Source: Bacilli bacterium (GTDB lineage: Bacteria; Bacillota_I; Bacilli_A; RFN20; CAG-826). From it: a stretch of DNA of 64,000 nucleotides. The stretch lies in NCBI GenBank assembly GCA_017429285.1, contig JAFRPF010000041.1, positions 2,753 through 66,752 of the forward strand. Direction: 5' to 3'. How positions within the stretch are numbered: position 1 is the first letter of the stretch; each line of letters opens with the position of its first letter. This document shows positions 7,633-24,979 of this stretch, in pieces. The notes below the pieces were generated by a model. That model worked only from the letters and a program-made list of their open reading frames with translations, ran no database searches and was not told the origin of the DNA. A program made the translations under genes and the position numbers.

Positions 7633-7644
7633 TAATATATAGTT

Positions 7645-8891: not shown

Positions 8892-10730
8892 ATGAGAAAA
8901 AAACAAGTTATACCAGATATATATTTAAAGGCTTATATCGATAACGAAGCTGACGCGAACAAAAAAATGATTATCGTTAACGCGATCGGTGGAGGCGTTG
9001 CCACGATATTAGCGATTTGTTATGCGGTGCATTTTTTCACTATTCCTTCGATTATGTATCCGGTGGTTTTAGTTTTATTCCCGGTTAGTGCTTTATTATT
9101 ATTTTCTCCATTATTATTTATAAAAAGTGATCGCTTAAGATTACCAAGATTTAAAAACTTCTTATTATTCTCTTTAATGACTGTTGTCGCGGCGATTAAT
9201 ATCTTCTTACCAAAACACGGTCTATTAGCCTGGACTTTACCAATCGTGATGGCGAGCCATTATTATAACCCTCGCTTTGCGAGAGTTATCTTCTTTTCGA
9301 CAATAACTTTGATGTTAATTTGTATGTATACAGGAATGTTTCTCGGCGAATATGATCCTTTATTACTTAGCTCAGGTGTTGAAAAAGAAGCTGTTAACAC
9401 ACCAGAAGGGCGTCTTGAATTATTAAAAGATTTAATGGCGCAAGGTAATAATAGATACTTAAAAGTATTTACTTTATATTACATCCCTCGTGTTGCGGCG
9501 ATTTCTTTAGTATTCATCATCCTAGATTCTTTAAATAGAAGAACTAATAGATTACTAAGAGAAGAAATTCTCGCTAACGGCGAACACGAAAAATCTAGAA
9601 CCGAATTAAACATCGCGAAAGAAATTCAAATTAATACATTACCAAGTTCTGAAATTGATGATGGTGAAGTTCATATTGTGGGTGAACTAGACGCAGCGAA
9701 AGAAGTGGGCGGCGATTTATATGATTATCTATATATCGATGAAAATCATATCGCCATCCTAGTGGGTGATGTCTCTGGTAAAGGTGTTCCAGCGGCGATG
9801 TTTATGATGAAAGTTATCACTTCCTTTAGAGACTTTACTGTGAAAAATAAATTACCGTCAGAAATATTAAAAGATATTAATACCTCTATTATTAGAGGTA
9901 ATAAAGCCGGAATGTTTGTCACTTGCTTCTTAGCGATTTTCGATAAGAGAAACGGTAAGATTATCTATTCTAATGCTGGACATAATCCTCCACTTATTGG
10001 TAATAGCTTTAACTTTCGATATTTAAAACCAAAACAAGGCTTTTTATTAGGCATGTTTGATGATCCTCCACTCGTGGATGAAGAAATCGTTTTGAAAAAA
10101 GGTGAAAGTATCACTTTATATACGGATGGCATTACTGAAGCTAGAAATAGTAATGGCGAATTCTATGGAGAAGAGAGATTATTAGAAACTTTTAATAAAA
10201 AAGAACAATTCTCCATCGATGAATTACATGAAGATTTAAAAGAAGATATCGCTAACTTTGTGAAAGATGCACCACAAAGTGATGATATCACTTTCGTGAC
10301 ATTAAAATATCATGATGCTTCAGTTAGAACAAATCATAAACGCTTTGATGGAACCTTAGAAGATATTAAAAATATGCTTTCTTTTATCGGTGATTTCGCT
10401 ATTGAGAATGAATTTAGTGAAGAAAATAAAAATAAATTATTAATAGTGAGCGATGAAATATTATCTAATGTGGTCAAATATGGTTATCAAAATGAGGGTG
10501 GACCAATCATGATTAGGTTGTCATTTAATAAATCAATTAGTGAATTTACGATCACCGTGATCGATAAAGCTCCAGAATTTAATCAATTAGAAGTCAAAAC
10601 TGATAACAATAATGAAGAATTACATATCGGTGGATATGGTCTTTCCATTGTAAAAAATATTATGGATGAATATTCATATAATTATGCGGACGAGAAAAAC
10701 ATTTTAACTTTAAAAAAGATCATTAAGTGA
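8892..10730 (+). CDS. Membrane-bound PP2C (SpoIIE/RsbU-type) phosphatase fused to an RsbW/SpoIIAB-like HATPase_c kinase domain
   Basis: Multi-TM N-terminus. PP2C motifs: GGDLYDY, VGDVSGKGVPAAMFM, NAGHNPP, LYTDGITEA, DDITFV. The C-terminus has EILSNVVKYGY and GGYGLSIVKNIMDE (N and G boxes). Confidence 0.8.
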   Translation: MRKKQVIPDIYLKAYIDNEADANKKMIIVNAIGGGVATILAICYAVHFFTIPSIMYPVVLVLFPVSALLLFSPLLFIKSDRLRLPRFKNFLLFSLMTVVAAINIFLPKHGLLAWTLPIVMASHYYNPRFARVIFFSTITLMLICMYTGMFLGEYDPLLLSSGVEKEAVNTPEGRLELLKDLMAQGNNRYLKVFTLYYIPRVAAISLVFIILDSLNRRTNRLLREEILANGEHEKSRTELNIAKEIQINTLPSSEIDDGEVHIVGELDAAKEVGGDLYDYLYIDENHIAILVGDVSGKGVPAAMFMMKVITSFRDFTVKNKLPSEILKDINTSIIRGNKAGMFVTCFLAIFDKRNGKIIYSNAGHNPPLIGNSFNFRYLKPKQGFLLGMFDDPPLVDEEIVLKKGESITLYTDGITEARNSNGEFYGEERLLETFNKKEQFSIDELHEDLKEDIANFVKDAPQSDDITFVTLKYHDASVRTNHKRFDGTLEDIKNMLSFIGDFAIENEFSEENKNKLLIVSDEILSNVVKYGYQNEGGPIMIRLSFNKSISEFTITVIDKAPEFNQLEVKTDNNNEELHIGGYGLSIVKNIMDEYSYNYADEKNILTLKKIIK

Positions 10731-10741
10731 TGGAGGGAATT

Positions 10742-11896
10742 ATGAAGTTTGAATTAAATAAAGATGTGTTAACCATCTACTTAGAGGGGGAATTTAATTC
10801 TTCTAATGCGGAACAAATCGGTCAAGAAATTGACAAGATTGTTAATAAAGAAAAATTTAATAAATTAGTAATGGATCTAGCTAAGGTTAGCTATATTTCA
10901 AGTGCGGGTTTAAGAGTGTTTTTAAAACTTAAACAACGTTATGATAATTACTCCATTATTAACGCTAGTTTAGAAGTTTATGATGTCTTCCAAATGACCG
11001 GCTTCACTAACATGATGGATATTAAAAAAGCTTTAAGAAAAGTGGATGTATCTCACGCTGAAGTAATTGGAGAAGGCTTTTTCTCCACAGTCTATCGTTT
11101 GGATAAAGATACCATTGTGAAAGTTTTTAACCGCACAAGTGATGCTGATCAAATTCAAAGAGAATTACGCCTTGCTAAAGAAGCATTTGTTTTAGGTGTT
11201 CCTACGGCGATATCTTTTGATATCGTTCAAGCGGGAGATAAACTCGGCGTGATGTTTGAAATGCTCGATTGCGCTTCTTTAAAAAATGTCTTATTAGAAG
11301 ATAAAAAACATTACCAAGAAAATTTAAAGAAATATGCGATGTTATTAAAGAAAATTAACACCACAGAATGTTTAAATCCGGAAATCCCTGATATTAAAAA
11401 ACTTTACTTTAAGAAATTAGAAGAGATTAAGAAACATCTAGAAGATAAATATTATCAAAAAGCCAAGAAATTATTAGAATCTATCCCTGATCGAAAAACA
11501 TTCGTGCATGGTGATTGTCACTTTAAAAACATCATGGTCCAAAATGGCGAATTCTTATTAATTGATATGGATACCTTATCCGTTGGTCATCCCATATTTG
11601 AATTAGCGGCGATTTACGCCCCTTATTGCGCCTTTAACGAAGATGAACCCGGTAATAGTGTGAAATTCTTCGGCATCAAAGATGAAGATGCTAAAAATCT
11701 CTATAATACCGTTCTCGATTTATATTTCGGTAAAGATATTAAAGAAGGCAAAGATAAGATTAGATTATTAAGCTACATCCATATGGTGTGGTGGAATAGA
11801 GTTAACGAACCGAATAATAATGTGAGATTAGAAGGTTGCCGTTCTCGTTTATACGAATTATTAGATAAATATAACGATTTAGATATTGGCATATAA
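10742..11896 (+). CDS. STAS domain fused to an APH/choline-kinase-fold kinase domain
   Basis: The N-terminal STAS carries LVMDLAKVSYISSAGLRVF. The C-terminal kinase fold has IVKVF (Lys), HGDCHFKNIMV (catalytic loop) and LIDMD (metal-binding Asp). I chose ATG 10742 because it follows GGAGGG. Confidence 0.75.
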   Translation: MKFELNKDVLTIYLEGEFNSSNAEQIGQEIDKIVNKEKFNKLVMDLAKVSYISSAGLRVFLKLKQRYDNYSIINASLEVYDVFQMTGFTNMMDIKKALRKVDVSHAEVIGEGFFSTVYRLDKDTIVKVFNRTSDADQIQRELRLAKEAFVLGVPTAISFDIVQAGDKLGVMFEMLDCASLKNVLLEDKKHYQENLKKYAMLLKKINTTECLNPEIPDIKKLYFKKLEEIKKHLEDKYYQKAKKLLESIPDRKTFVHGDCHFKNIMVQNGEFLLIDMDTLSVGHPIFELAAIYAPYCAFNEDEPGNSVKFFGIKDEDAKNLYNTVLDLYFGKDIKEGKDKIRLLSYIHMVWWNRVNEPNNNVRLEGCRSRLYELLDKYNDLDIGI

Positions 11897-11900
11897 TGGC

Positions 11901-11918
11901 TGTGACACTTATGTGACA
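11901..11918 (+). promoter_or_regulatory. Direct-repeat candidate operator TGTGACA-N4-TGTGACA (11-bp register)
   Basis: Perfect 7-mer repeated at 11901-11907 and 11912-11918, between the STAS-kinase stop (11896) and the GT2 start. Confidence 0.3.
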
Positions 11919-11943
11919 AGCTTTGTTATATCATTTTTTTGTT

Positions 11944-13254
11944 ATGAATTACGTCACGATTATTAACATTATTTTTGCTATCATTTCCGCTCTACTAGGC
12001 ATCTATCTTTTTCATTTTATTTTCTTTGCGATAAGTGCTACATTTCATCATCGTAAGTATCCAACTAGTGATGAGAAATGTCGATATGGAATTATCGTTA
12101 GCGCCAAAGATGAAGAGAAAGTTATCGGTCGACTTATTAATAGCATCAAGGAAACTAATTATCCTATGGATAAATTAGAGATCTTTGTGATCGCTCATAA
12201 CTGCAAAGATCTAACCGCGGAAATCGCTAGATCTTTAGGTGCCAAGGTTATTATAGATAATAACGAAAATGAAAAGACTCTGGGTCTAGCTTATAAATAT
12301 GCCTTTGAGCGTATAGAAAATATATCTTCCTATGATGGTTTTATCTTCTTTAACGCTGATAATGTTGTACCTAAAGATTATTTTGATAAATTAAACGATG
12401 CTTTTATCTATTATCATAAAAAAGATGTCGTCTCCTCATTACGCCATTCTTTAAATGTGGAAGATGGTTTAATACCATCTTTATATAATTATTATTTTTC
12501 AACATCATGTTTATTAGCCTTTTCGGGAAGAAATAATTTTAATGTTTCCGGTCGTATTACTGGTTGTGGATTTGTCCTTCCTTCCTCTTATTTAGTCGAT
12601 GGTTGGAATTATTTAAGCATCACGGAAGATATTGAATTTAGTGCCGCAAATGTTTGTAAAGGAAGGACGATCCGTTTTTGCTATGACGCTGTCTTTTATG
12701 ATGAACAACCCACTGATTTAAAAACGGTGTGGAATCAACGTATCCGTTGGGCTAAAGGACAACAGATAATTTCTAAAAAATATTTTCCGATTGTGCTTAA
12801 ATCCTTATTTTCTAAAGAACATAAAAATAAAGTGTCTTTATTTGTTTCATTAACTTTTCACTCGTTTATTGTTCTAACGGTGTTCGTTTTATTTTTAGCG
12901 CAAATAATATTGCTTTTACTTTCACCGATATTTAATGTCTCTATTTATGATGCGTTTTTATATTGGGATCATTCCGCTTCTTTCTTTACCAATATGTTTT
13001 TATCTTTTAATACTGGTTATTTATTTACATTTTTTAAATCAATTGCGTTTTTCTTCCTTAATTCCTATCTAACCGCAGCTATGGTATTAATATCAGGAAG
13101 AAGTAAGAATAAAGATTTTAATAAAGGAAAAATGTTTATCTCATTTTTTATCTATCCTTTGTTTTTAGCGTTACAATTTCCGATGGAAATCATCGCTCTA
13201 TTTAAAAAAGAAATTAAATGGAAAAAGATTGATCACGGTAAAAGTGTTGATTAG
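11944..13254 (+). CDS. Processive family-2 glycosyltransferase (membrane-embedded beta-glycan synthase type)
   Basis: Motifs FFNADN (DxD), ITEDIEF (TED) and QRIRWAKGQ (QxxRW), with TM helices at both ends. The start is uncertain: ATG 11944 or TTG 11923, and neither has a clear SD. Confidence 0.8.
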   Translation: MNYVTIINIIFAIISALLGIYLFHFIFFAISATFHHRKYPTSDEKCRYGIIVSAKDEEKVIGRLINSIKETNYPMDKLEIFVIAHNCKDLTAEIARSLGAKVIIDNNENEKTLGLAYKYAFERIENISSYDGFIFFNADNVVPKDYFDKLNDAFIYYHKKDVVSSLRHSLNVEDGLIPSLYNYYFSTSCLLAFSGRNNFNVSGRITGCGFVLPSSYLVDGWNYLSITEDIEFSAANVCKGRTIRFCYDAVFYDEQPTDLKTVWNQRIRWAKGQQIISKKYFPIVLKSLFSKEHKNKVSLFVSLTFHSFIVLTVFVLFLAQIILLLLSPIFNVSIYDAFLYWDHSASFFTNMFLSFNTGYLFTFFKSIAFFFLNSYLTAAMVLISGRSKNKDFNKGKMFISFFIYPLFLALQFPMEIIALFKKEIKWKKIDHGKSVD

Positions 13255-13510: not shown

Positions 13511-13580
13511 AAAAGAAAATAGGGAAAAAACTGTAAAAGAAAGTAGGGGAAAATCTTTAAAAGAAAATAGGGAAAAAACT
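13511..13580 (+). repeat. Three tandem 24-bp A-rich repeats (AAAAGAAAATAGGGAAAAAACT core)
   Basis: Copies at 13511-13532 and 13559-13580 are identical. The middle copy at 13535-13556 is AAAAGAAAGTAGGGGAAAATCT. They lie in the 530-bp gap upstream of the giant gene. Confidence 0.85.
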
Positions 13581-13786: not shown

Positions 13787-16700
13787 ATGAAGAAATCTAT
13801 TGTTAAAAGTATCGCGCTAGGAATTGGTGGATTATTAAGTCTATCCTTTTTGTTTGGCGTAGGTTCAAATAACCAATCTATCAATAAAGAAGATAGTGAC
13901 ACTGCTTTATTAGCAACTAGCGTAAAAAAACAACAACTCATTAATAGAGATGGCGTTAACACAGAAGGAACACCTTTACCTACTAGTGGCACGTTATCAG
14001 CAGGAACATATTATCTAGATTCTGACTCAACTATTACTTCGATATTAAATATTACTTCTGGTGACGTTATTGTAAATCTTAACGGACACACCTTAAATGG
14101 TGGTGGCCGAGATAAAGGTACTTTTTACGTAACAGGCGGAACATTAACGGTTAATGGTAAGGATGAGACAACCGGTCAGCGTGGCCTAATAAATAATGCC
14201 GGAGGCTATTATCCAGGTAGTGGTTATAGTTATGGCGGTGCGCTTTATATTACTAAAGGTGAAGCAACATTTAACGACCTTGACATTACAAATTGTCAAG
14301 CTAACTGGGGCGGTGCCATATATATGAGTAATAGCGCCGTTACTCTTAATAATTGTAATTTGTCTGGCAATAAAGCCACTAACGGCTATGGGTATCCTTG
14401 CGCCATTGATGTTGGGGATTCTTCTACCGCCGGGACAGGACTAACCGTAAATGGTGGTGAGATGTTTTCTAATGATGCCGGTATATCTTTAGGTAATAAA
14501 GCAAAGGCCACAATAAATGGAGCTTATATTCACGACAACGAGCGTTTTGGTGTCCGTGTTGAAGATAGTGGTGCAACTTTAAATATATCTGGTGATACTA
14601 TCATAAAAAACAATTCTACATCAACAACTTCGGGTGCACGTGCTAATTTACGTATAAATGGTACTAATCAAGCTAAAATTGCCATCACATCTGCTCTAGG
14701 TGATAATGCATCGATTGGTATTACCATGACCGGGACTCAAGGTATTTTTACCGCTAGTGCGGATACATCACTGAATGATTTCAGCAAATTCTTTAGTGAT
14801 GATGCTAATTATGCTGTTGCTAAAAACAGTGATGGTCAACTATATCTAACAGAAGCTGTTGCCACTGTCACGAGTGGTGCAACAGTTACGGAATATGCAA
14901 CTTTTAGTGATGCTGTTAGTGCATGGGGATCTGCTAGTAATGGCGCAAACTTGACATTACTAAAAGATTCGACTACTGAAAGCACAATCTCTGTTAGCGA
15001 TACTAAGACATTTGATTTAAATGGATGTGGCATTAACGCTAACGGAAGTAGCATTCCGATATTCACCGTTAATGCTGGTGGTGATTTTACTCTTAACGAT
15101 AGTGGTTCAACCACTCATTACTATACATTAGCTAATGTTGAATCTAATGGAGCGGCTTTTGCCACAATTTGTGATGAAGAAACTTATGAAGCTGCTGCAG
15201 CTGACGCTAGAGGAACTTTTACTGGTGGATATTTAACTGGGGCCAATCCTAGTGCACAAACTGGTATTTATCCAGGTGGTGGTATCTATATTTTAGCTAA
15301 TGGTGTGGCCACAATGAATGGTGGCACTATCATTGGTAATATTGCCTCTAACTGTGCTGGTGGAGTTGGAAGTTATGGCACATTCATTATGAACGATGGG
15401 AATATTATCTATAATCGTGCAAGAAGAGGAGCCGTTCTTGCTTCTGCAGGGGAAATGACAATTAATGGTGGTCATATCTCTTATAACACTGGTAGAGGCA
15501 CTCAAGATTGCGGTACCTCTGGCGCTGTAATGATTTATGGTAATTGCACCAGTTTCATTATTACTGGTGGTTATTTTACTAATAACTTTGCAAAATATGC
15601 CGGATTTGCTAGCAATATAGAAACTATCTCAATATCTGGTAATCCAGTATTTAAAGATAATATTGGTTGTGGCGCTAGTGGCACTGATACTACAGAAATT
15701 AATGCCTGGTTATGTAGAAGAAGTAATCTCAATGTCTATTTTGATATTGTTGGTGAATTAACTGAAGGTGCAGAAATAGGTGTCACTATAGAAAATACAT
15801 CTACAGGTGTTATCACTAACTCAAGTGATATTTCATATAATGACGAAAGTAAATTCTTTAGTGATGCTAGTTATGCCGTTGCGAAAAACAGTGATGGTCA
15901 ACTATATCTAACAAATGCTGTTGCCACTGTCACAAGTGGTGAAACGGTTACAGAATATAATAACTTTGATGACGCTCTTGCTGCATGGACTGATGAAACT
16001 ACTCTTAAATTATTAAAAGATGTCACTATGAGCGATACTATTAATGTGAATAATAATGCCACTCTTGACCTCAATGGTCATGGAATTAAAGCAACCGGCA
16101 CTGACTATAGTGTTCTTACTATTAATAATGGAGGAAAACTTATCATCATTGATAGTGGTGATACGACACAATATTTCACAATAACTGACCGTTATGATGG
16201 TAATGGGGCGGGATTTGCTACTGTTTGTGATAAAGCCACATATGATGCGGCTAGTGAAAACCTTAGAGGCACATTCCAAGGTGGCTATATTACTGGTGGG
16301 AATATCATAAACACCGGGTTTTATCAATCTAAAGCCGGAGCTATCACTGTTATGGAAGGTGGAGAACTTGATTTTAAAGCCGGTACTATTATTGGTAATA
16401 GCGGTGGCAGCGAATCTCCTGGTGGTGTTAGTTCATTTGGTACATTTACACTTAATGGTGGAAACATCATCTATAATCGAGGTAGAAGAGGCTCTGGAGT
16501 ATTTCTTGATAAAGGCACTTTCGTAATGAATAGTGGCTCTATTGAATATAACACTGGTGTAGGTGCAACTGAATATGGTACTTCTGCCTTACACTCATAT
16601 GGAAACACCAAGTCTATTTCCTTAAAAGGAGGAAGCATTTCTCATAACTATGCTAAGTATGGAGGAATTCTCACACCAATTAATATCTTTTTATCCGGAG

Positions 16701-19700
16701 ATTTCGTTGCCGCTAATAACATTGCTTGTGGATCTTCTGGAACCGACGCAGCAAATAGAAACATCATATTATCAGAGGGCGCACTTATAAGCGGATGTAT
16801 TACTGGAAATACACCTATAGGTATTAGTTTTCTTGGCTCTGATACTGGTGTATTTACTAATAATACCGATACATCTTTAAATGATCCTAGTAAGTTTGTA
16901 AGTGATAACACTAACTATGCTATTGGAGTTTATCCAGCTGATAGTACCAAAGCTGGACAATTATTCATTGGTAATAAGGTTACTGTTACTTATACTACTG
17001 AATACGGAACTGCGCCTGCTTCTGATGTAGTGGCAGACGGTTCTATTATTTATAATGAACCAACATCTCCAAGCCAGGAAGGTTATGTATTTATAGGTTG
17101 GTATAAGGATGAAGAATTTGAAAACGCCTGGGATTTTGCTACTGACACTGTCACTTCAAATACAACCTTATATGCTAAATGGTACGATGAAGCTACAGCC
17201 AATGTTATTAAACTAATCAATGATATTGGCGATCTTACATATGCAGGTGGTGTTAACGATTCATTAGATGACATTATCACTGCAAAAGCTGCATATGATG
17301 CATTAACTCCAAGCCAACAAGCAATTGTTAATAAAGAAAATAAAGATGTTTTGGATCACGACATCTTAACATATAGACATGTTGATAATGTTGCAGATTT
17401 AATTAAAGAAATTCCTGCAGCAAGTGATTCTCAAGAATATTACGGTGCAGTTGAAGCTGCTTTAGCAGCGTATAAAGCTTTAACCGATGAAGAAAAAAAC
17501 ATTTTAAATGCTAGTCTTGATTTCCAATACAAAAAGACACTTGATGATAATATCGCCGCTAAAGAAGTTATTGAACTTATCCAAGATATTGGAGAAGTAA
17601 CTTATAACGGTGGTCAAGATGACTCTAAAGACGATATCAATGCCGCCTTAGATGCGTATAACAATTTAACTGACGATCAAAAGGCAAGCGTTAATAACGC
17701 TAATAAAGATGCTTTAGATGAGGCAAAAGAAACATATGATAATGTCGATGAAGCCGTTAATCTAATTAATTCTATCGGTGATATTAATCACGGAGGAGAA
17801 AGCGATTCAAAAGAAGCAATCGATGCTGCTAAAGACGCTTATGAGTCTTTGACACCGGAAGAAAAAGCTCTTGTCGCTTCATATAATAACTCTGAAAAAA
17901 CATTAGAAGACGCTGAAGAAGTATATGATGTTTTAGTTAAAATCGATGACATCGGTGAAGGCGATGATGATGAGAAAATTAAAGAGGCTAGAGATGCTTA
18001 TGACGCCTTAACTCCAGAACAAAAAGATAAAGTGAACGATGAATCTTTCCAAAAATTAATTGCTGCTGAAAATCGTTCTAGTGACGCGAAAAAGCAAGCA
18101 AATATCTTATTTATCGTTTTCTTAATTCTTTCCATTCTCTTAATTGTTAGCGGATTAATCGTTCTCTTTGTTCTTCTTAAAAGAAGAAAAGATGAAAATA
18201 ATAGCAATAATAAGCAAGTAAAAGTAGCATCTATTTCTGGATTATTACCATTATTAATTTTAGTTTCATATTTTAGATCAACTAAATTTATCATCCTTTA
18301 TATTTTAATAGCTGTCGGAATTCTCATTTGGTTAGCTAACCTGATTCTCTTTGTTTCTAAAAAGAGACAAAAAGAAGTGAAAGTCGAAGCTAAACCTGAA
18401 ACAGTTATTTCCGCTGTATCTCAAGATAAACAAACTGAAATAATTAACGAAGATGAAGAAGAAGTGGAAACTATCACTGATGAAAAAGGCAATGTCTTCC
18501 AAATCAGGTTTATCAAATCTTTCACCGCTAAACTTATTCAATCTCCAGATGAAACTAAAAAATATTATGAAGAGCTTAAAAACGAAGTCCTTTCATATAA
18601 GAAAACAAATTCCAGAATCTCTTGGCATTATGATGCGGTTAATTCCGGAAGAAACTATGTTTTAAAATTTGTAATTAGAGGAAAAACACTTTGTGTTTAT
18701 CTTCCTTTAAACGCTGATGATTATGCTAATTCAAAATACAAAGTAGAGAAAGCTGAATCTAAACGTTATGAAGATGTACCATGTCTCTATCGTATTAAAA
18801 ATGATAGAAGATTAGGTTACGCGAAAGAACTTATCGAAGTGGTTGCTAATAACCTCGGTTTAGAAAAAGAGGAAGAACAACATGAAGTCTACTCTAATCT
18901 CCCATATGAACCTAATAAACCACTTGTTGCTAGAGGTTTAATTAAAGAACAAAAAATACAAGTTAATAAGCCCGCTAGTGAACCCGCTATATTAGAAACT
19001 AAAACTAATTCAGATGGAGATGAAGTGGTGGTCAGTAAAGACGCAAGTGGCAACATCTTTGAAATTAGATATATTAAGTCATTTACCGCTAAACTTATTC
19101 AGTCTCCAGATGAAACAAAGAAATATTATGAAGAGCTTAAAAATGAGGTTCTCTCTTATAAAAAGACTAACTCTAGAGTGAGTTGGCATTATGATGCGAT
19201 TAACTCTGGTAGAGAATATGTCTTAAAGTTCGCTATTAGAGGAAAAACACTTTGTGTCTATCTCCCACTTGATAGTGAGAATTTGGAAGATAAGTATAAA
19301 GTTGAAAAAGCGGAAAGTAAACGCTACGAAGATGTACCTTGCTTATATCGAATCAAGAATGATAGAAGACTAGGCTATGCAAAAGAACTTATCGCGATGG
19401 TGGTCTCTAACCTCGGCTTAGAAAAAGATGAAGAGCAACATGAAGTCTATTCAAATCTTCCATATGAAGAGAATAAACCGCTTATCGCTAGAGGTTTAAT
19501 CAAAGAACTTAAAGTTAAAGTAAATAAACCTGATTATGGTCCTGTTGTCTTAGAAAGCAAAGTCAACTCTGAAGGTGATGAAGTAGTATTAACTAAAGAT
19601 AGCAGTGGTAACTTATTTGAAATTAGATATATCAAATCATTTACTGCAAAACTCTCTCAAAGTGAGGCCGAAGTTAAAGATTATTACACAATTTTAAAGA

Positions 19701-20431
19701 ATTATGTTTTCTCTTATAAAGGAATCCATTCTAGAGTAAGTTGGCACTATGATGCGATTAATATTGGTAGAGACTACATATTAAAATTTGCGATTAGAGG
19801 TAAAACATTGTGTGTCTATTTCGCCTTAGATGCTTCTAAATTAGACAATAAATATAAAGTTGAAGAGGCAAAAGGAAATAGATATATCGAAGTTCCGTGC
19901 TTATATCGTATTAAAAACGATCGTAGATGTGAGTATGCTAAAGAGCTCATTGATCTATTAATGAAAGAACATGGATTAAATCAAGGTGATATTCCTAATG
20001 AGGATTATCATATTAAAAAAGAATCCACAAAAGCGTTACTTGATAAAGGCTTAATTAAGGAAGTTAAATCTAAAATCCATGATCAAAAAGTGATCGAACA
20101 TTATGAATCAATTACAGTAAGTAAAGCTGATGAAGTGATGTCTGATGAAAAAGCTGAAGCTTCTATTCAAGAAGTTATAGTAATTAAACATAAAGAAGGT
20201 AGTAAAGTAATCATCAATATTGATACCTTATCAAAGAATTATAATAATGGTGATGAAGTTACTCTTGATTCATTGATTGAAAAAGGATTAGTGCCTTCAA
20301 AAGCCGGCCACATTAAAGTTCTTGCTAGAGGAGAATTAGATAAGAAACTACATGTTGTCGCTAATGATTATTCATTACAAGCTATTAAGATGATTGTCTT
20401 AGTGGGTGGTACTGTTAAAAAGATCAAATAA
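13787..20431 (+). CDS. Giant (about 2214 aa) transmembrane surface protein: signal peptide, Pmp-like beta-helix repeats, Flg_new repeat, helical repeats, TM cluster, 3 cytoplasmic repeats, uL15-like C-terminal domain
   Basis: Signal-like N-terminus MKKSIVKSIALGIGGLLSLSFLF starting at ATG 13787 (ORF-track GTG 13763 is less likely). GGAIY/GGALY and FxxN motifs. YVFIGWY...LYAKW is a Listeria-Bacteroides repeat. Hydrophobic segments at about 18104-18355 are each followed by KRRK or KKRQK. The C-terminus aligns to RplO. Confidence 0.85.
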   Translation: MKKSIVKSIALGIGGLLSLSFLFGVGSNNQSINKEDSDTALLATSVKKQQLINRDGVNTEGTPLPTSGTLSAGTYYLDSDSTITSILNITSGDVIVNLNGHTLNGGGRDKGTFYVTGGTLTVNGKDETTGQRGLINNAGGYYPGSGYSYGGALYITKGEATFNDLDITNCQANWGGAIYMSNSAVTLNNCNLSGNKATNGYGYPCAIDVGDSSTAGTGLTVNGGEMFSNDAGISLGNKAKATINGAYIHDNERFGVRVEDSGATLNISGDTIIKNNSTSTTSGARANLRINGTNQAKIAITSALGDNASIGITMTGTQGIFTASADTSLNDFSKFFSDDANYAVAKNSDGQLYLTEAVATVTSGATVTEYATFSDAVSAWGSASNGANLTLLKDSTTESTISVSDTKTFDLNGCGINANGSSIPIFTVNAGGDFTLNDSGSTTHYYTLANVESNGAAFATICDEETYEAAAADARGTFTGGYLTGANPSAQTGIYPGGGIYILANGVATMNGGTIIGNIASNCAGGVGSYGTFIMNDGNIIYNRARRGAVLASAGEMTINGGHISYNTGRGTQDCGTSGAVMIYGNCTSFIITGGYFTNNFAKYAGFASNIETISISGNPVFKDNIGCGASGTDTTEINAWLCRRSNLNVYFDIVGELTEGAEIGVTIENTSTGVITNSSDISYNDESKFFSDASYAVAKNSDGQLYLTNAVATVTSGETVTEYNNFDDALAAWTDETTLKLLKDVTMSDTINVNNNATLDLNGHGIKATGTDYSVLTINNGGKLIIIDSGDTTQYFTITDRYDGNGAGFATVCDKATYDAASENLRGTFQGGYITGGNIINTGFYQSKAGAITVMEGGELDFKAGTIIGNSGGSESPGGVSSFGTFTLNGGNIIYNRGRRGSGVFLDKGTFVMNSGSIEYNTGVGATEYGTSALHSYGNTKSISLKGGSISHNYAKYGGILTPINIFLSGDFVAANNIACGSSGTDAANRNIILSEGALISGCITGNTPIGISFLGSDTGVFTNNTDTSLNDPSKFVSDNTNYAIGVYPADSTKAGQLFIGNKVTVTYTTEYGTAPASDVVADGSIIYNEPTSPSQEGYVFIGWYKDEEFENAWDFATDTVTSNTTLYAKWYDEATANVIKLINDIGDLTYAGGVNDSLDDIITAKAAYDALTPSQQAIVNKENKDVLDHDILTYRHVDNVADLIKEIPAASDSQEYYGAVEAALAAYKALTDEEKNILNASLDFQYKKTLDDNIAAKEVIELIQDIGEVTYNGGQDDSKDDINAALDAYNNLTDDQKASVNNANKDALDEAKETYDNVDEAVNLINSIGDINHGGESDSKEAIDAAKDAYESLTPEEKALVASYNNSEKTLEDAEEVYDVLVKIDDIGEGDDDEKIKEARDAYDALTPEQKDKVNDESFQKLIAAENRSSDAKKQANILFIVFLILSILLIVSGLIVLFVLLKRRKDENNSNNKQVKVASISGLLPLLILVSYFRSTKFIILYILIAVGILIWLANLILFVSKKRQKEVKVEAKPETVISAVSQDKQTEIINEDEEEVETITDEKGNVFQIRFIKSFTAKLIQSPDETKKYYEELKNEVLSYKKTNSRISWHYDAVNSGRNYVLKFVIRGKTLCVYLPLNADDYANSKYKVEKAESKRYEDVPCLYRIKNDRRLGYAKELIEVVANNLGLEKEEEQHEVYSNLPYEPNKPLVARGLIKEQKIQVNKPASEPAILETKTNSDGDEVVVSKDASGNIFEIRYIKSFTAKLIQSPDETKKYYEELKNEVLSYKKTNSRVSWHYDAINSGREYVLKFAIRGKTLCVYLPLDSENLEDKYKVEKAESKRYEDVPCLYRIKNDRRLGYAKELIAMVVSNLGLEKDEEQHEVYSNLPYEENKPLIARGLIKELKVKVNKPDYGPVVLESKVNSEGDEVVLTKDSSGNLFEIRYIKSFTAKLSQSEAEVKDYYTILKNYVFSYKGIHSRVSWHYDAINIGRDYILKFAIRGKTLCVYFALDASKLDNKYKVEEAKGNRYIEVPCLYRIKNDRRCEYAKELIDLLMKEHGLNQGDIPNEDYHIKKESTKALLDKGLIKEVKSKIHDQKVIEHYESITVSKADEVMSDEKAEASIQEVIVIKHKEGSKVIINIDTLSKNYNNGDEVTLDSLIEKGLVPSKAGHIKVLARGELDKKLHVVANDYSLQAIKMIVLVGGTVKKIK
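14786..16891 (+). repeat. Two tandem paralogous units of about 1.05 kb inside the ectodomain-coding region
   Basis: The marker KFFSD(D)A(N)YAVAKNSDGQLYLT(E/N)AVATVTSG(A/E)TVTEY recurs at 14786 and 15851 (period 1065 nt). A third, diverged boundary, SKFVSDNTNYAIG, is at 16892. Confidence 0.7.
18478..20100 (+). repeat. Three tandem repeats of about 558 nt (186 aa) in the predicted cytoplasmic region
   Basis: Units start at about 18478, 19035 and 19593: G-N-(V/I/L)-F-(Q/E)-IR(F/Y)IKSFTAKL ... SWHYDA(V/I)N ... IRGKTLCVY ... VPCLYRIKNDRR ... AKELI. Units 1 and 2 look roughly 80% identical at DNA level by eye. Confidence 0.8.
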
Positions 20432-20461: not shown

Positions 20462-21499
20462 ATGATTATGTTCAATTTAAAAAGTAAAAGATTATCTATT
20501 TTTGAAAAGGTGTTTGGGTGTGTTTTCCTCGTGTTAACACTCACCTATTTTGTTTTACTTGCCTTTGGCAAATGGATATTCGCTACCAATAGTGTTTTCT
20601 ATCGTAGTTTGAATATCTTCTCTGGAGCGAGTGACCCAAATGTCTTTATTAGGATCCTCAGCTATTCTTTCTTTATCTTTGGAAGTAGCTATATCGTAAG
20701 ATTATTACTCACCTTATGCTTACCATTATTAAAGAAAACCAGAGGATTATTAACCATTTTGATTTCTGTGATTAAATATGCAGCTGTCTTAGTATGGATA
20801 TTCTTTGTTTTATCTAGCTTTGGAGTTAATACCACCGTCATTTTAGCAGGTATTGGCATTCTCTCATTAATTGTTGGACTCGCTATTCAACCATTACTCG
20901 CCGATATCATCGCTGGTTTATTTATCGTTTTTGAAGATGTTTTCCATGTTGGTGATGTCATCGTTGCAGATGGCTTTAGAGGACAAGTTAAAGAAATCGG
21001 TATGAGACATACTCAACTTGTTGATGCTGGAGGCAATGTTAAAGTCATCAATAACTCCGATATCCGTTCAATGGTCAACTTAACTGACCAACTTTCTGTT
21101 GTTGCAGTGGATATGTCCATTGAATATGGCGAATCTTTGGAAAGAGTTGAAGCTATCATTGCTCAAAACATTGATAAGATTAAAGAAGCTATCCCCGCTA
21201 TTGTTGAAGGTCCTTTCTATAAAGGCGTTTCCGCTTTAGCAGATTCATCAGTCAACTTAAAATTCTTTGCTAAGTGTGAGGAAGATGACAGATTCCAAGT
21301 TGAAAGAGATTTAAATAGACAATTCAAATTATTATTTGATAAGTACAATATCAATATTCCATTCCCACAAGTGGTGGTTAATCAACCAGTGAATTTTGAA
21401 GAAGCCACTGCAAAGGATAAGAAAATTGCCGAACAATTTGTTAATGAACAAAAAGTAACTTCTAGTGGAATTGAAGAAAACAATAACGACGTTAAATAA
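20462..21499 (+). CDS. Small-conductance mechanosensitive channel (MscS family)
   Basis: TM helices followed by VGDVIVADGFRGQVKEIGMRHTQLVDAGGNVKVINNSDI (MscS beta-domain signature). AGGAG precedes the ATG. Confidence 0.85.
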   Translation: MIMFNLKSKRLSIFEKVFGCVFLVLTLTYFVLLAFGKWIFATNSVFYRSLNIFSGASDPNVFIRILSYSFFIFGSSYIVRLLLTLCLPLLKKTRGLLTILISVIKYAAVLVWIFFVLSSFGVNTTVILAGIGILSLIVGLAIQPLLADIIAGLFIVFEDVFHVGDVIVADGFRGQVKEIGMRHTQLVDAGGNVKVINNSDIRSMVNLTDQLSVVAVDMSIEYGESLERVEAIIAQNIDKIKEAIPAIVEGPFYKGVSALADSSVNLKFFAKCEEDDRFQVERDLNRQFKLLFDKYNINIPFPQVVVNQPVNFEEATAKDKKIAEQFVNEQKVTSSGIEENNNDVK

Positions 21500-21501
21500 A
21501 T

Positions 21502-23142
21502 ATGGATTTTGAAAAGAACAATTTACATCTTAATAACGATTACGATAATTACAAAACTGATGAAATAAACAAGATTCAGCAAGGTAATGAAAGTTTTCAT
21601 ATTAATCATGAATCTTACTTTTCTAATGAAAAATTTGATGAAATAAAAGAATTAAATAATTTCTCTACTTCTACTAGTAATAAACCTTTTAAACAAGATG
21701 GAAGTAATTTAAAACAAACCCCTAATGCTTCAAGCGCGATTAGTAGTGGAAGCGCTTCCCTTAGTGCTGGGGCAGCTTCTATTGCTCTTCCTTCTGCTAT
21801 AGTTGCTTTAGCAGGAGCGGTGGCGGTTATTGGAGTCTCTTCTGGATTCATTCAAACCCCACCTTCTAATCATGTCTCACTATTCATGAGCAGAAGTACT
21901 GAATTAGGGTTTGAAATTGATCGAGATAGAAATAAACCACATGTCATGTATTTGACTAATGAAGAATATTCATATTCTGAAGCTGTTGATTTCATTGATC
22001 GAGTCGTTTTTAAAGATTTAATTCCTAACACCGTTTACGATTTAAAGGTTTATGATACAAGTGTCGATCCAAATGAACTCGTATATAGAGGGAATTATTT
22101 AACCCCGGCTTATGATCAATATTCTTCTTCGATTACCAACACTACTCTAGATGGAAATACTTTAACCTTTGATGTTAATTATGAAGGAAATGGCATCGAT
22201 TTCGTCACAATTATAGTCTATGGAGATAATAACGAAGTTATTTATAAATATGAAGGTTCTCCAATAGATACAATAACTTTAAACGCTGCTGGATATCAAA
22301 ATGTCACTTGCTCTATTGAAATAAATGGACAGATAACTCATTTTGAGCAGTTATTTGCAAGTCAAGAAATCATTCGTGTCACTAGCGTTTCTTTAGATCA
22401 ATCATCATTAGAACTTTCTACTGGTGATACTCATGAATTTGTAGCAACAGTTCTTCCTATAAACGCCACAAATAAAGAATTGATTTGGTCTAGTAGTGAT
22501 GAAAGTGTTCTTACTGTTACCGATGGAGTAATTACCGCTTTAAAAGAAGGAAAGGCTACTGTCACTGTTAAATCTAAAGATGGATATAAATCATCCAGTG
22601 CGGAAATAACAGTGGTTAAAAAGCCTTCTGTTGTTCATGTTAGTAGTGTTTCATTAAATGAAACCACATTAAATATGGAGACTGGAGATCGTTATTCATT
22701 ACAAGCGACAGTTTTACCAAGTAACGCTAGCGATAAATCACTCAATTGGAGTAGTAATAACGAATCAGTGGTTACTGTTAATAGTAAAGGTAAAATCACT
22801 GCTGTTAGTGCCGGACAAGCTATCATTACAGCAACTACTACTGATGGAGGTTTAACCGCTTCATGTACGGTTAATATTACTCAAAAAATAGTCCCAGCTA
22901 CTGGTATAAAACTCAATTATAATGAATTAGAACTAAGTGTTGGTGGTAGTGAAAGCTTAGTTGCTACGGTCTTGCCAACTAACGCGACCAATAAAGAAGT
23001 TATTTGGTCATCCACTAATGAAGCTGTAGTCACAGTTGATGAAAATGGATTAGTGAGCGCCGTTAGCGCAGGTGATGCCATCATTGTTGTTAAATCAGTC
23101 GATGGTGGTTATCAAGATTTCTGTGTTGTAACAGTAATTTGA
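21502..23142 (+). CDS. Membrane-anchored surface protein with three Big_2 (bacterial Ig-like group 2) domains
   Basis: One Ala-rich TM segment near residue 100. Three copies of V(S/T)SVSL...L..G....L.ATVLP.NA(T/S)(N/D)K...W(S)S(S).ESV.TV. Confidence 0.8.
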   Translation: MDFEKNNLHLNNDYDNYKTDEINKIQQGNESFHINHESYFSNEKFDEIKELNNFSTSTSNKPFKQDGSNLKQTPNASSAISSGSASLSAGAASIALPSAIVALAGAVAVIGVSSGFIQTPPSNHVSLFMSRSTELGFEIDRDRNKPHVMYLTNEEYSYSEAVDFIDRVVFKDLIPNTVYDLKVYDTSVDPNELVYRGNYLTPAYDQYSSSITNTTLDGNTLTFDVNYEGNGIDFVTIIVYGDNNEVIYKYEGSPIDTITLNAAGYQNVTCSIEINGQITHFEQLFASQEIIRVTSVSLDQSSLELSTGDTHEFVATVLPINATNKELIWSSSDESVLTVTDGVITALKEGKATVTVKSKDGYKSSSAEITVVKKPSVVHVSSVSLNETTLNMETGDRYSLQATVLPSNASDKSLNWSSNNESVVTVNSKGKITAVSAGQAIITATTTDGGLTASCTVNITQKIVPATGIKLNYNELELSVGGSESLVATVLPTNATNKEVIWSSTNEAVVTVDENGLVSAVSAGDAIIVVKSVDGGYQDFCVVTVI

Positions 23143-23163: not shown

Positions 23164-23190
23164 AAGGTGATGCTTGGCATCGCCTTTTTT
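23164..23190 (+). terminator. Intrinsic terminator after the surface-protein operon
   Basis: GGTGATGC / GCATCGCC stem (one G-U pair) followed by TTTTTT. Confidence 0.7.
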
Positions 23191-23345
23191 AAAGAATGAA
23201 ATTAAAATAACACGTAATTCATTTACGTGTCTTGAGATTTAATTGCGCCCTTAAATGTCACAACACGGACAATAATCTTCATTAACAATAATTTGCTGTT
23301 AACAAAATAAAAAAATATGTTAAAATGTTTACAGAGGTGAGAAAT

Positions 23346-24395
23346 ATGGTAGGAAAGAAAATTAAATACTATCGCCTTAAAAAAGGCTTAACATCTGAAC
23401 AATTGGCAAAAGAGGTAGGCTGTACAAAAGCAGCAATTTCACTTTATGAAAGTGAAGAAAGAGAGCCAAGCAAGGAAATCTGCAAAACTATTGCGGCTGT
23501 TTTAGGTGTGCCTTGGGTTGAATTGATATCTAGAAGTAATAATAAATTGGTTTTTGACCATATCAGCTTTAGAAAAAAACAAAAAGCATCAAAAAAAGAC
23601 ATTGAATTACTTAAGACGGAAATCGAAGAAAAATGTGCTAATCGCATTTCTTTGATGAATATTGTTGGGTTAATTAATTTTAAGACCTTCAAACCAAAGA
23701 AATTATCATATGATCATAGCGTTTCTGAAAACGCCAAAATTATTAGATCCCTATTAGGCCTTCCTTCTAGTGGTCCAATTTATTCCGTCACTAATATTCT
23801 CGAACATGCAGGCATTATTGTTTTATCTTTCGAGTGCACTGATGAGATAGATGGCATTAATGGATTAGTTAACGGTATTCCATATATTTTCTTTAACTCT
23901 AAAAATAGAACCATTGAAAGACAAAGATTCACAATTGTTCATGAGGCTTGTCATTTATTCTTCAATGATTCAGAAGTGAACAAAACAGAAAAAGAAATTG
24001 AAAAATATATAAACCAAGTAGCTGGAAATGTTTTGATTCCTGACGATGATATCTATTCTATTTTTGGAAAAACAAATAGAAACATCACAATCTATTTAAG
24101 AGACAATGTCGCCAAGCAATATAAGATTGCTCCTTCCTGTTTATTAAATAGGCTTTTAGAAGCTGGAGTCATTACAGAAATGTATCATAAGAATTATTTT
24201 ATTTATTTAAATAGAAACTATGGTAGAAAAGCTGAAAAAACTCTTCTGGATCCTATTAAAGATTCTGAAGAACCAACTATTTTCACACAATACGTTTATT
24301 TAGCTTTATCTGAAGAACTTATATCTGCATCTAGAGCTGCTGAATTTTTACATGTGCCGCTTTATGATGTGATGCAAAACATGAGGGTAGAATAA
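23346..24395 (+). CDS. XRE-family HTH fused to ImmA/IrrE (COG2856) zinc metallopeptidase domain
   Basis: HTH: KIKYYRLKKGLTSEQLAKEVGCTKAAISLYESEER. HEXXH motif: VHEACHLFF. I chose ATG 23346 because it follows GAGGTGA. Confidence 0.8.
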   Translation: MVGKKIKYYRLKKGLTSEQLAKEVGCTKAAISLYESEEREPSKEICKTIAAVLGVPWVELISRSNNKLVFDHISFRKKQKASKKDIELLKTEIEEKCANRISLMNIVGLINFKTFKPKKLSYDHSVSENAKIIRSLLGLPSSGPIYSVTNILEHAGIIVLSFECTDEIDGINGLVNGIPYIFFNSKNRTIERQRFTIVHEACHLFFNDSEVNKTEKEIEKYINQVAGNVLIPDDDIYSIFGKTNRNITIYLRDNVAKQYKIAPSCLLNRLLEAGVITEMYHKNYFIYLNRNYGRKAEKTLLDPIKDSEEPTIFTQYVYLALSEELISASRAAEFLHVPLYDVMQNMRVE

Positions 24396-24396
24396 C

Positions 24397-24813
24397 ATGA
24401 AAAAGTTTTTATATTGTGACTCATGCTTTTTAATAACATTTTACCAAGACGGATATCTTGGTTCTTTGTCACAATATAAAACCCAATTCTTTATTTCCAA
24501 AACTCAAATTGAAGGCGAATTAATCAAACCTTCCGATTTAGCAACAATGGTTAGAAAAAACATTACTGTAATCGAAGAAGACAGAGATGATATAAAAGAT
24601 AAAACAAATGAATTCTCTTTATTATATGAAACTCTATCAATCTATGATTGCCTTTGCATGGCATATTCAATTTTGGATGGTTATTGCTTAATTACTGACG
24701 ATAAGGCATTACAAAAGAAATGTGCAATTCATGGTATAGAAGTAAAGACATCTAAAGAAATTATAGATGAGTTTTTAAAAGGAGGTGTTGGTTATGAGAA
24801 TATGAAAAAATAG
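24397..24813 (+). CDS. PIN-like domain protein (candidate toxin/RNase)
   Basis: 138 aa with acidic residues in PIN-like positions: FLYCDS (D8), QIEGEL, SIYDCLCMAYS, LITDDKAL. The start is 1 nt after the stop of the ImmA gene. Confidence 0.55.
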   Translation: MKKFLYCDSCFLITFYQDGYLGSLSQYKTQFFISKTQIEGELIKPSDLATMVRKNITVIEEDRDDIKDKTNEFSLLYETLSIYDCLCMAYSILDGYCLITDDKALQKKCAIHGIEVKTSKEIIDEFLKGGVGYENMKK

Positions 24814-24832
24814 TTTGATTTAAGGAGGACAT

Positions 24833-24904
24833 ATGAACAAAGAACAATCAAAAGCTAAAAAAATCGTAACCAGTGCGAATGGTCACGATTGTGGACATGC
24901 TTGA
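24833..24904 (+). CDS. Possible 23-codon leader ORF (MNKEQSKAKKIVTSANGHDCGHA)
   Basis: A strong SD (AAGGAGGA) lies 5 nt upstream of the ATG. The stop is embedded in a hairpin. There is no homology evidence. Confidence 0.25.
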   Translation: MNKEQSKAKKIVTSANGHDCGHA

Positions 24905-24979
24905 AGCATGTAGACAAATATATATTAGCATGTCCAAAACAAAGTGCCTACATCTTTTCTGTAGGAGAAAGTTGAGGTC

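Follow-up and report, generated by a model that had tools for sequence, protein, structure and literature searches.

What does a giant surface protein keep on the inner side of the membrane? In the usual picture of Gram-positive bacteria, a surface protein stops at the cell wall or in a short membrane anchor. The question is raised by a gene in a 64,000-nucleotide stretch of the genome of a rumen Bacilli bacterium (contig JAFRPF010000041.1, positions 2,753 to 66,752; the window hereafter), which encodes a 2214-residue protein joining an adhesin-like outer part to a long C-terminal tail. The comparisons described below indicate a membrane-anchored surface adhesin with a conserved, uncharacterised and probably cytoplasmic cassette that shares single domains with the ribosomal protein uL15 and with the candidate defence proteins PDC-S18. 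The reading that is favoured, with a probability of roughly 0.5, is that of a variable surface adhesin on a conserved anchor, the tail of which would serve as a multivalent tether for nucleic acid or ribosomes.

The C-terminal 689 residues were predicted from the translation to be highly charged and modular, which is what was found. They contain 16.8% Lys + Arg and 16.4% Asp + Glu, and consist of three tandem units of about 186 residues followed by an acidic helix and a 75-residue terminal domain (Table 1). Compared with repeat 2, the identity is 80% for repeat 1 and 58% for repeat 3. The cores of the repeats are basic, with isoelectric points (pI) of 9.1–9.4 in the window protein and a median pI of 9.66 and net charge of +10 in the family presented below. 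The spacers between the domains and the membrane-proximal linker are acidic.

The terminal domain is recognised by the Pfam model PF00828 (Ribosomal_L27A) at residues 2142–2210, with an E-value of 1.6e-12 and a score of 48 bits against a cut-off of 21.5. When compared with the Protein Data Bank (PDB) using phmmer, it aligns to residues 75–143 of uL15 from Listeria, S. aureus, Enterococcus and B. subtilis (E = 4e-9). An AlphaFold2 (AF2) model of repeat 3 and the C-terminus has a predicted local distance difference test score (pLDDT) of 92, and its terminal domain superposes onto uL15 taken from ribosome structures (Foldseek E = 5e-6, 33–40% identity). The predicted fold and the KVLxxGxLxKxLxV...GG core are those of the globular C-terminal domain of uL15 (RplO), and the domain is basic (pI 9.5; family median 9.3). 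The N-terminal extension of uL15, by which the ribosomal protein penetrates and anchors in 23S rRNA, is Gly/Arg-rich and corresponds to positions 1–72 of the TIGR01071 equivalog profile. It is absent here: the window domain covers profile positions 73–143 of 144 only and scores 41 bits against the required 77.95. Since the extension is absent and the equivalog cut-off is not reached, the domain is classed as a paralogue of the globular half of Firmicute uL15 and not as a ribosomal protein. Moreover, uL15 is a stand-alone protein of about 145 residues encoded in the spc operon, whereas this domain ends a 2214-residue membrane protein, the gene of which has a family-2 glycosyltransferase (GT2), an MscS channel and a Big_2 protein as neighbours. 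As the extension, the score, the protein context and the operon all differ, the database name 'uL15 family ribosomal protein', which several relatives bear, is a misnomer for the family.

No Pfam model matches the repeats of the window protein, and 66 repeats from the family gave sub-threshold hits only (DUF3788 in 4 of 66, best E = 0.05; DUF5655 in one). Modelling and fold searches of the repeat and of the C-terminus, which had been proposed along with the original prediction, produced confident models, with a fold that may remotely resemble the YdhG/YjbR class for the former and the uL15 fold for the latter. The model of repeat 2 has a pLDDT of 93.6 and a predicted template-modelling score of 0.83. 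Its Foldseek matches in the PDB are the YdhG/DUF1801 proteins 9t2w and 2oc6 (probabilities of 0.99 and 0.96), E. coli YjbR (2fki) and the C-terminal domain (CTD) of T4 MotA (5jlt, 1kaf). The best hits of the repeat in the viral library BFVD are D9ZNF6 (E = 1.7e-4), a protein with DUF5655 (E = 1.3e-3) and one that resembles Alc; a weak match to SecB is also found among the fold hits. Both YjbR and MotA-CTD are considered to bind DNA as modules of the 'double-wing' type (PMC7641849). The modelled repeat, with its basic surface, would thus remotely resemble the proteins of the YdhG/YjbR/DUF5655/MotA-CTD class, and YjbR (PF04237), YdhG-DUF1801, DUF3788, DUF5655 and MotA-CTD form the closest predicted fold class. 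Unlike these families, with which the window repeats have no significant sequence match, the repeat is marked by invariant motifs not shared with them (KSFxAKLxQ, LKN, SW and RGKTL) and by an additional C-terminal helix-strand extension. It is also found in a membrane-tethered tandem array, an arrangement that is not known for YjbR, DUF1801, DUF3788, DUF5655 or MotA-CTD. A search of the PDB with the sequence profile of the repeat returned only chance-level matches to viral nucleoproteins (E = 0.3).

In one relative, the repeat and a YjbR region lie in a single chain. P0085 (820 residues) has an N-terminal Biotin_lipoyl domain, the motif that precedes the TM (transmembrane) segment in the family together with the membrane module, one repeat, and a YjbR domain (PF04237) in place of the uL15-like end. 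The YjbR region of this protein looks duplicated, and the best stretch according to Pfam comprises residues 607–677 only.

A relationship at the sequence level was found with PDC-S18. The two PADLOC profiles (PDLC04945 and PDLC04946) match repeat 2 of the window protein with an E-value of 1.5e-6, as well as 36 of the 66 family repeats. The E-value falls to 1e-22 with four soluble relatives (P0054, P0068, P0105 and P0117) in which the repeats are fused to DUF2357, a domain associated with restriction-type nucleases. What is shared is one domain: the repeat aligns to the C-terminal 105–135 or so positions of the profiles (193–298 of 302), leaving the first 190 or so unmatched. The window protein differs further by being membrane-borne and by its housekeeping and regulatory chromosomal surroundings, where there is no defence island, and its full 689-residue tail did not match PDC-S18 at an E-value of 0.01. 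One divergent repeat of P0054, used as the query of a word-indexed search for homologues, retrieved no match, and nothing relevant was found in the literature on PDC-S18 or DUF5655. With the defining feature of each checked and found lacking, the window protein is neither a uL15 ribosomal protein, nor a member of the YjbR family, nor a PDC-S18 protein.

The distribution of the tail was then considered, as had also been proposed. A search with the tail retrieved 1,780 proteins. An exhaustive search with the repeat profile yielded 3,608 clusters (50% identity), of which 1,779 had E ≤ 1e-30, with members of up to 4,721 residues. The genome matches are all rumen or gut metagenome-assembled genomes (MAGs) labelled Bacilli, 'Erysipelotrichaceae', 'Bacillales', Clostridia or Christensenella, several of which have more than one paralogue. 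At the core of the family, the membrane module is followed by a polybasic cluster with a linker, by one to seven repeats and by the uL15-like end. Of 201 sequences that were examined, 140 have this end, and some of the others are truncated. What precedes the core differs greatly between members. In about half of those listed, there is nothing more than a short N-terminal tail before one TM segment; in others, Flg_new, MBG_2 or Big_3 domains are found, or ectodomains that are thousands of residues long, their size ranging in the family from none to more than 4,000 residues. Hundreds of members are the cassette alone, without ectodomain. With thousands of clusters in gut and rumen Bacilli and Clostridia, with or without ectodomain, the architecture as seen in these sequences is a trait of a large family and not a peculiarity of the window gene. 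A mobile-element origin was considered and rejected, as tblastn with the tail found no match in the plasmid and phage collections. No paper on the family was found under 'uL15 family ribosomal protein' or under Ribosomal_L27A/PF00828 combined with transmembrane.

The joining of both parts in one chain requires that the gene be intact. The original prediction described a single open reading frame (ORF), to be abandoned if a stop or a frameshift split it at the TM region. The frame runs without interruption from the ATG at 13787 to the stop at 20431, over 2214 codons, the longest frame beginning with a GTG at 13763. At the G+C content of this segment (32.8%), about 7% of random codons are stops; since an open frame of this length is impossible by chance where stops are that frequent, the ORF is certainly real. 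The orthologue from an independent MAG (L004, 2232 residues) is likewise uninterrupted, with the same layout and the three repeats at the same places. In a near-identical contig (L001, ERZ28654120 scaffold_720; 99.5% identity), the frame is open for 1535 codons until a scaffold gap at 9737–9836, where 100 Ns replace window positions 18264–18674, in the TM and repeat 1 region. On either side of the gap, the same frame remains open. The gene call on this contig (P0001) is only 530 residues long because of the Ns and not because of a frameshift, and the split gene that it suggested was rejected. The position of the gap shows that this stretch is difficult to assemble. Tandem repeats hamper the assembly there, and the copy number of repeats in short-read MAGs must be taken with care.

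A misassembly or a sequencing error in the repeat-rich TM region could in principle have joined an adhesin gene to that of a 'uL15 family' membrane protein, and the difficulty of assembly, like the methionine discussed next, speaks for it. Such an artefact is extremely improbable, as ectodomain, TM segment and module follow each other in the same order in dozens of other MAGs from several studies, in proteins that run without interruption over 1,300 to more than 3,300 residues, besides L004 and members of up to 4,721 residues. Many ectodomain-bearing paralogues (L013, L014, L016, L018, L025 and others) have kept a methionine exactly where the minimal members of the family begin ('KAMSIGGF...'). 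This coincidence suggests that a unit formed by the ectodomain and TM1 was fused in the past to a minimal cassette gene; the conserved residue hints either at this fusion or at an internal translation start in the paralogues. The window protein has an alanine (GCA) at this position and no start codon nearby. An internal start giving a separate tail protein was therefore rejected for the window, which has GTA/GCA where the paralogues have methionine; the same lack of a start codon at the junction argues against the artefact.

That the protein is bitopic, with the last 690 or so residues inside the cell, had been predicted from three hydrophobic segments at about 18104–18355, the first followed by KRRK and the third by KKRQK. 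Hydropathy confirmed the segments, and the topology is upheld at the level of prediction by family comparison. Lys and Arg are more numerous after the last TM segment than before it in 161 of 167 family members (15 residues on each side; means of 4.99 and 1.26). The N-terminal tails of the minimal members are uncharged or acidic, without a positive n-region, and a KKRQK-type cluster follows their TM segment, an N-out/C-in signature. In two members (L034 and L037), a textbook signal peptide and a large ectodomain are followed by a single stop-transfer TM segment with KRRDK or KRKKK and then by the module, which places the latter on the cytoplasmic side. Most other ectodomain-bearing members, including the window protein, have three hydrophobic segments, an odd number if the middle one spans the membrane. 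This middle segment (residues 1481–1496) corresponds to the conserved 'SIGGFLPxxxLTSHYLDA' element that opens the minimal members; from TM parity and family comparison, it is presumed to cross as the arm of a hairpin. The soluble DUF2357 relatives already mentioned, which are 900–1,180 residues long with an N-terminal DUF2357 and two to four repeats, have neither TM segment nor signal peptide. The window protein thus has the predicted features of a type I membrane protein, namely a signal-type N-terminus, an odd number of later TM segments, and a positive cytoplasmic flank. With the charge bias, the members with a signal peptide and one TM segment, the soluble members, and a terminal domain derived from a cytoplasmic protein, the tail is very probably cytoplasmic.

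The opposite orientation would have the tail outside, where its basic repeats would bind anionic wall polymers or extracellular DNA as do the GW modules of InlB. This could be the case if two of the three segments spanned the membrane, or if the TM segment of the minimal members were a signal anchor. The middle segment is indeed just 16 residues long, and the arrangement of tandem basic C-terminal repeats after a B-repeat resembles that of InlB. In addition, P0108 and P0112 have an N-out-type TM segment followed by RKHAASRKRQ, four Big_3 immunoglobulin-like domains and two repeats, with no further TM segment and no uL15-like end, so that domains that are usually extracellular lie on the side of the repeats. 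Either these Big_3 domains are cytoplasmic spacers, or both proteins are exceptions. An extracellular tail is very unlikely, as it would require translocation of the polybasic cluster in 161 of 167 members and a signal anchor without positive n-region in the minimal ones. It would also conflict with the members in which a signal peptide and a single TM segment put the module inside, with the soluble members devoid of any signal peptide, and with the descent of the terminal domain from a cytoplasmic ribosomal protein.

The two sides of the membrane have evolved differently. Compared with the L004 orthologue, the identity is 64% in the beta-helix and 62% in the Flg_new repeat, and reaches 93% in the stalk, 89% in the TM module, 85–94% in the repeats and 95% in the uL15-like domain. 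The regions rank in the same order in more distant relatives. At the syntenic locus, where the MscS gene (80–96% identical) and the Big_2 gene are found directly downstream, the protein varies from 546 residues without ectodomain (L015) to 2232 residues. From this pattern of identity and this range of sizes, the tail is considered to be under constraint and to form the functional core, and the ectodomain to be a surface module that changes quickly. Conservation of the tail far exceeds that of the ectodomain, which by this comparison points to purifying selection on the tail.

The conservation bears on the possibility of a passive adhesin, the tail of which would be inert or structural, with the module assisting very large exported proteins in staying at the membrane, in oligomerising or in their biogenesis, without any specific ligand. 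The absence of an LPXTG motif makes a membrane anchor necessary, and the cassette is joined to many unrelated ectodomains, as a generic anchor would be. However, a single TM segment would suffice as an anchor, no part of the protein is better conserved than the tail, in which many polar and basic residues are invariant, the hundreds of cassette-only members have nothing to anchor, and the soluble DUF2357 fusions use the same domain. An anchor without ligand is hence distinctly unlikely.

The favoured reading is that of a type I protein (N-out, C-in), the two parts of which have evolved in very different ways. The outer part (residues 28–1430) would be an acidic, fast-evolving, adhesin-like ectodomain in which a beta-helix is followed by a B-repeat of the InlB type and by a helical stalk. 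The inner cassette would start with the membrane module (TM1, a basic loop, the short hairpin arm, TM3 and the polybasic cluster) and continue with an acidic flexible linker, one to seven (here three) basic α/β domains of about 125 residues, each followed by an acidic spacer, and the uL15-like end. Held at the membrane, the tail would bind a polyanionic cytoplasmic partner in a multivalent manner. Most likely, the uL15-like domain would bind rRNA or ribosomes as this partner, and/or the 'double-wing'-like repeats would bind DNA or RNA. The core function of the cassette would be to tether this partner to the inner face of the membrane; in the ectodomain-bearing members, the tether would also physically join a surface adhesin to the cell interior. 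A polyanion is proposed because the tail ends in the paralogue of an rRNA-binding domain, because several of its domains, which are strongly basic and of a fold class with DNA binders among its members, are strung like beads on acidic stretches, and because the same repeat is fused to the nuclease-associated DUF2357 and is homologous to a candidate defence domain. We infer the nucleic-acid or ribosome partner from these features. Surface contact may in addition be coupled to an intracellular process, as suggested in the original prediction.

Several observations weigh against this reading. The part of uL15 that is anchored in the 23S rRNA is precisely that which is absent from the terminal domain. 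The Foldseek matches of the repeat in the PDB are remote, with E-values of 0.04–0.3 and TM-scores of 0.4–0.57 (E = 0.04 and 0.40/0.57 for 9t2w). No signal was obtained when the repeat profile was compared by hhalign with the YjbR domain of P0085 (probability of 0.2%), so that it is the fold and not the profile that links the repeat to YjbR. Such a fold does not by itself imply binding of DNA or RNA, since the class includes iron-binding and chaperone-like proteins (YdhG/frataxin-like proteins, type III secretion chaperones). No neighbour that is conserved across the whole family, and that could name the partner, was found in 78 loci. The shortness of the middle hydrophobic segment and the Big_3 domains of P0108 and P0112 must also be counted here. 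A more specific proposal, tentative and rather doubtful, is that the cassette is a hitherto unrecognised bacterial receptor, widespread in gut and rumen Bacillota, by which ribosomes (or rRNA, or the nucleoid) would dock on the inner face of the membrane, the giant members coupling an adhesin mechanically and spatially to the translation machinery or the chromosome. Such a receptor would be a prokaryotic counterpart to the eukaryotic ribosome receptors or to surface-to-interior linkers of the LINC type.

The gene neighbourhood offers another partner. A LytS-type kinase (His_kinase PF06580 and HATPase_c) and a response regulator (REC and an unassigned output domain of about 130 residues) are encoded at window positions 6361–8403 (+), 5.4 kb upstream of the giant gene. 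Orthologues that are 53–73% identical are found directly beside family genes in L008, L025, L028, L029, L040, L046, L048, L055 and L079, and the pair may be linked to the family by regulation. The tail could then be a signalling or scaffolding device that binds a regulator, the LytS-type pair or partner-switching proteins, and relays ligand binding or load inward, comparable to RsgI or ToxR. Besides the recurrence of the kinase and regulator in these nine other loci, this is consistent with the genes for STAS, SpoIIE-PP2C/HATPase_c_2 and STAS-APH proteins that lie between the kinase pair and the giant gene, with the protein binders present in the fold class (type III secretion chaperones, and the weak SecB match), and with the strong conservation of the tail. 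Yet the kinase and regulator are neighbours in about 10 of the 78 loci, all from related genomes, and no neighbour is family-wide. The tail contains no signalling domain recognisable with Pfam or NCBIfam, and the minimal members have no ectodomain to sense with. Basic domains with acidic spacers and a ribosomal-protein paralogue fit a polyanionic partner better, and a signalling tail is judged unlikely. It is nevertheless the most plausible of the alternatives, followed by the ligand-free anchor, the extracellular module and, last, the assembly artefact.

If the tail does bind ribosomes or nucleic acids as favoured here, it would represent a new way of organising translation or the chromosome at the membrane, in connection with the surface. 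The picture of surface proteins that end at the wall or membrane would in any case need to be amended for thousands of gut and rumen Bacillota proteins that carry a conserved multi-domain tail predicted to be cytoplasmic, many of them giant and adhesin-like, from 1,300 to more than 4,700 residues long. The last domain of this tail is a duplicated piece of a ribosomal protein. Whatever is bound, a widespread misannotation as 'uL15 family ribosomal protein' is corrected, a new domain family of about 185 residues without Pfam model is defined, and this repeat domain is tied to the candidate defence proteins PDC-S18 and to nuclease-type proteins with DUF2357.

Regarding the ectodomain, the original prediction of an adhesin-like beta-helix was retained in part. 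The Beta_helix model PF13229 matches residues 150–290 (E = 7e-7, 29.4 bits for a gathering score of 25.9) within a Gly/Asn/Thr-rich region; beyond these residues, the ectodomain is called beta-helical from its composition and its internal 355-residue repeat only. This repeat is a tandem duplication of residues 334–688 and 689–1035, which are 49% identical (E = 3e-93 by pairwise comparison). The proposed assignment to Pmp-type repeats had to be dropped: the Pmp models (PF02415 Chlam_PMP / TIGR01376, POMP) are not among the Pfam and NCBIfam hits at E ≤ 0.1, and only three GG[AG][ILV]Y motifs occur in 1030 residues, at positions 150, 175 and 497. The ectodomain is acidic (pI of about 4.2–4.4), and a PDB sequence search with the beta-helix part found no relative. 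The Listeria-Bacteroides repeat that had been placed at 16976–17182 was retrieved by PF09479 (E = 9e-15, 54.9 bits for a cut-off of 27) and TIGR02543 (E = 4e-8, 33.4 for 20.95), and matches InlB chains in the PDB by sequence. The five or so helical repeats of the AYDALTPEQK type were also recovered, as five motifs with a period of 53–62 residues (about 58 each). The same stalk precedes TM1 in many relatives; a PDB sequence search with it gave only low-complexity noise from TALE repeats. No LPxTG sortase signal is present anywhere in the protein, and 690 residues come after the last TM segment.

Table 1. Features of the giant gene and of the two genes that follow it; positions are those of the window, and domain, membrane and signal assignments are predictions.
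Feature	Residues	Position	Strand	Basis and remarks
Whole gene		13787..20431	+	Intact ORF; 2214-aa type I membrane protein with variable ectodomain, membrane module and conserved cytoplasmic tail
Signal peptide or N-terminal anchor	1-27	13787..13867	+	n-h-c type: MKKSIVKS, hydrophobic core, VGS; hydropathy peak at aa 4-27; K-rich n-region; no lipobox Cys
Parallel beta-helix type ectodomain	~1030 aa	13868..16966	+	Gly/Asn/Thr-rich; PF13229 match and internal repeats
Listeria-Bacteroides repeat (Flg_new, InlB B-repeat type)	1066-1131	16982..17179	+	PF09479, TIGR02543
Five acidic helical stalk repeats ('AYDALTPEQK' motif)		17219..18076	+	A-Y-x-x-L-T motif at aa 1169, 1228, 1290, 1351, 1404
TM1, out-to-in, then KRRK	1440-1464	18104..18178	+	Hydropathy 3.25; kept in ectodomain-bearing relatives
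Short hydrophobic segment (ASISGLLPLLILVSYF), putative in-to-out hairpin arm	1481-1496	18227..18274	+	Hydropathy 1.7-1.9; family comparison
TM3, out-to-in, then KKRQK	1501-1523	18287..18355	+	Hydropathy 2.75; charge of C-terminal flank
Cytoplasmic repeat 1, basic core (pI 9.4) and acidic tail	1560-1746	18464..19024	+	Self-alignment, hidden Markov model
Cytoplasmic repeat 2, α/β domain	1747-1932	19025..19582	+	AF2 model, Foldseek, PDC-S18 match
Cytoplasmic repeat 3	1933-2116	19583..20134	+	Self-alignment; YjbR and YdhG fold matches
uL15-like domain	2140-2214	20204..20428	+	PF00828, phmmer, AF2 and Foldseek
MscS-family channel gene		20462..21499	+	PF00924; 30 nt downstream; GAAAGGAGA ribosome-binding site
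Big_2 membrane protein gene		21502..23142	+	PF02368 x3; 2 nt after MscS; N-terminal cytoplasmic part of ~95 aa, one TM, three extracellular Big_2
Intrinsic terminator, AAGGTGATGC-TTG-GCATCGCCTT and T6		23164..23192	+	10-bp stem with one G-T pair, short loop; read directly

The co-orientation of the giant gene with those of an MscS channel and a Big_2 protein, with gaps of 30 and 2 nucleotides, agrees with what had been predicted, and so does the terminator that closes this group of three. The latter had been placed at 23164–23190; it is missing from the listing of the automatic scan, and direct reading extends it to 23192. The link between the three genes is kept in about 10 closely related MAG loci, which represent one clade only. 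In a Clostridia MAG (L034, JAXFZW010000164.1, 93–8840), genes for an MscS channel (56% identical), a 396-residue protein without assigned family and a MIP aquaporin or glycerol facilitator lie, in this order, just upstream of that of an 1859-residue member, one of the two in which a classic signal peptide is combined with a single TM segment; osmoregulatory channels thus adjoin a family gene in a second bacterial class. The 95 or so N-terminal residues of the Big_2 protein are polar and lack the charge pattern of a signal peptide. As this protein too has a sizeable N-terminal part in the cytoplasm, both surface proteins of the operon are predicted to reach into the cell.

Upstream of the giant gene, at 8892–13254 (+), are encoded a SpoIIE-type PP2C fused to an RsbW-like HATPase_c_2, a STAS domain fused to an APH-type kinase, and the family-2 glycosyltransferase, which form a partner-switching-like set. 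In the sister contig L001, a 99-residue STAS protein is also called just before these genes. Three direct repeats of 22 nucleotides (AAAAGAAAATAGGGAAAAAACT) with a spacing of 24 nucleotides are found at 13511–13580, in the 532-nucleotide intergenic region, about 200 nucleotides before the start of the giant gene; they may constitute an operator or an array for the binding of a regulator. Past the terminator, at 23325–25759 (+), are genes for an HTH_3 and Peptidase_M78 (ImmA/IrrE-type) protein, a 138-residue ORF without family match, and a DUF4417 protein. To judge from its content, this segment looks like the remnant of a mobile element or of a prophage regulatory module. Further away, at 42803–44464 (–), a 553-residue protein with two Cthe_2159-type carbohydrate-binding domains is likely to be located at the surface or to bind carbohydrates.

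The window protein can finally be compared with systems of known organisation. InlB and the beta-helix adhesins of Gram-positive bacteria likewise have an exported, acidic and repeat-rich ectodomain, with a beta-helix segment, an InlB-type B-repeat and a stalk, that diverges rapidly. Listeria InlB combines its B-repeat with C-terminal GW repeats. Unlike these adhesins, the window protein has no LPXTG, GW, LysM or SLH anchor; it is held by TM segments, and 31% of its chain is predicted to be cytoplasmic. It is neither an LPXTG adhesin nor a Pmp protein, the defining feature of each having been sought and found absent. RsgI-type anti-sigma factors and ToxR/CadC offer an analogy in joining an extracellular domain, across the membrane, to a cytoplasmic domain that here may have DNA-binding character. 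The window protein differs from them in having no anti-sigma, winged helix-turn-helix or other regulatory domain, in its orientation, which is opposite to that of ToxR, and in its tandem tail ending in a ribosomal-protein paralogue. For the cassette itself, the nearest functional analogies may be membrane tethers. E. coli ZipA consists of a TM segment, a flexible linker and a globular binding domain, and p180/RRBP1 is a ribosome receptor of the endoplasmic reticulum with basic tandem repeats. The minimal members of the family, with a short N-out tail, one TM segment, a polybasic cluster, a long acidic or Pro-rich linker and one or more globular domains, could be functionally analogous to the former, and the tandem basic repeats on a membrane anchor recall the latter. 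Unlike either, to which it has no relationship in sequence or fold, the tether described here is often fused to a giant ectodomain.

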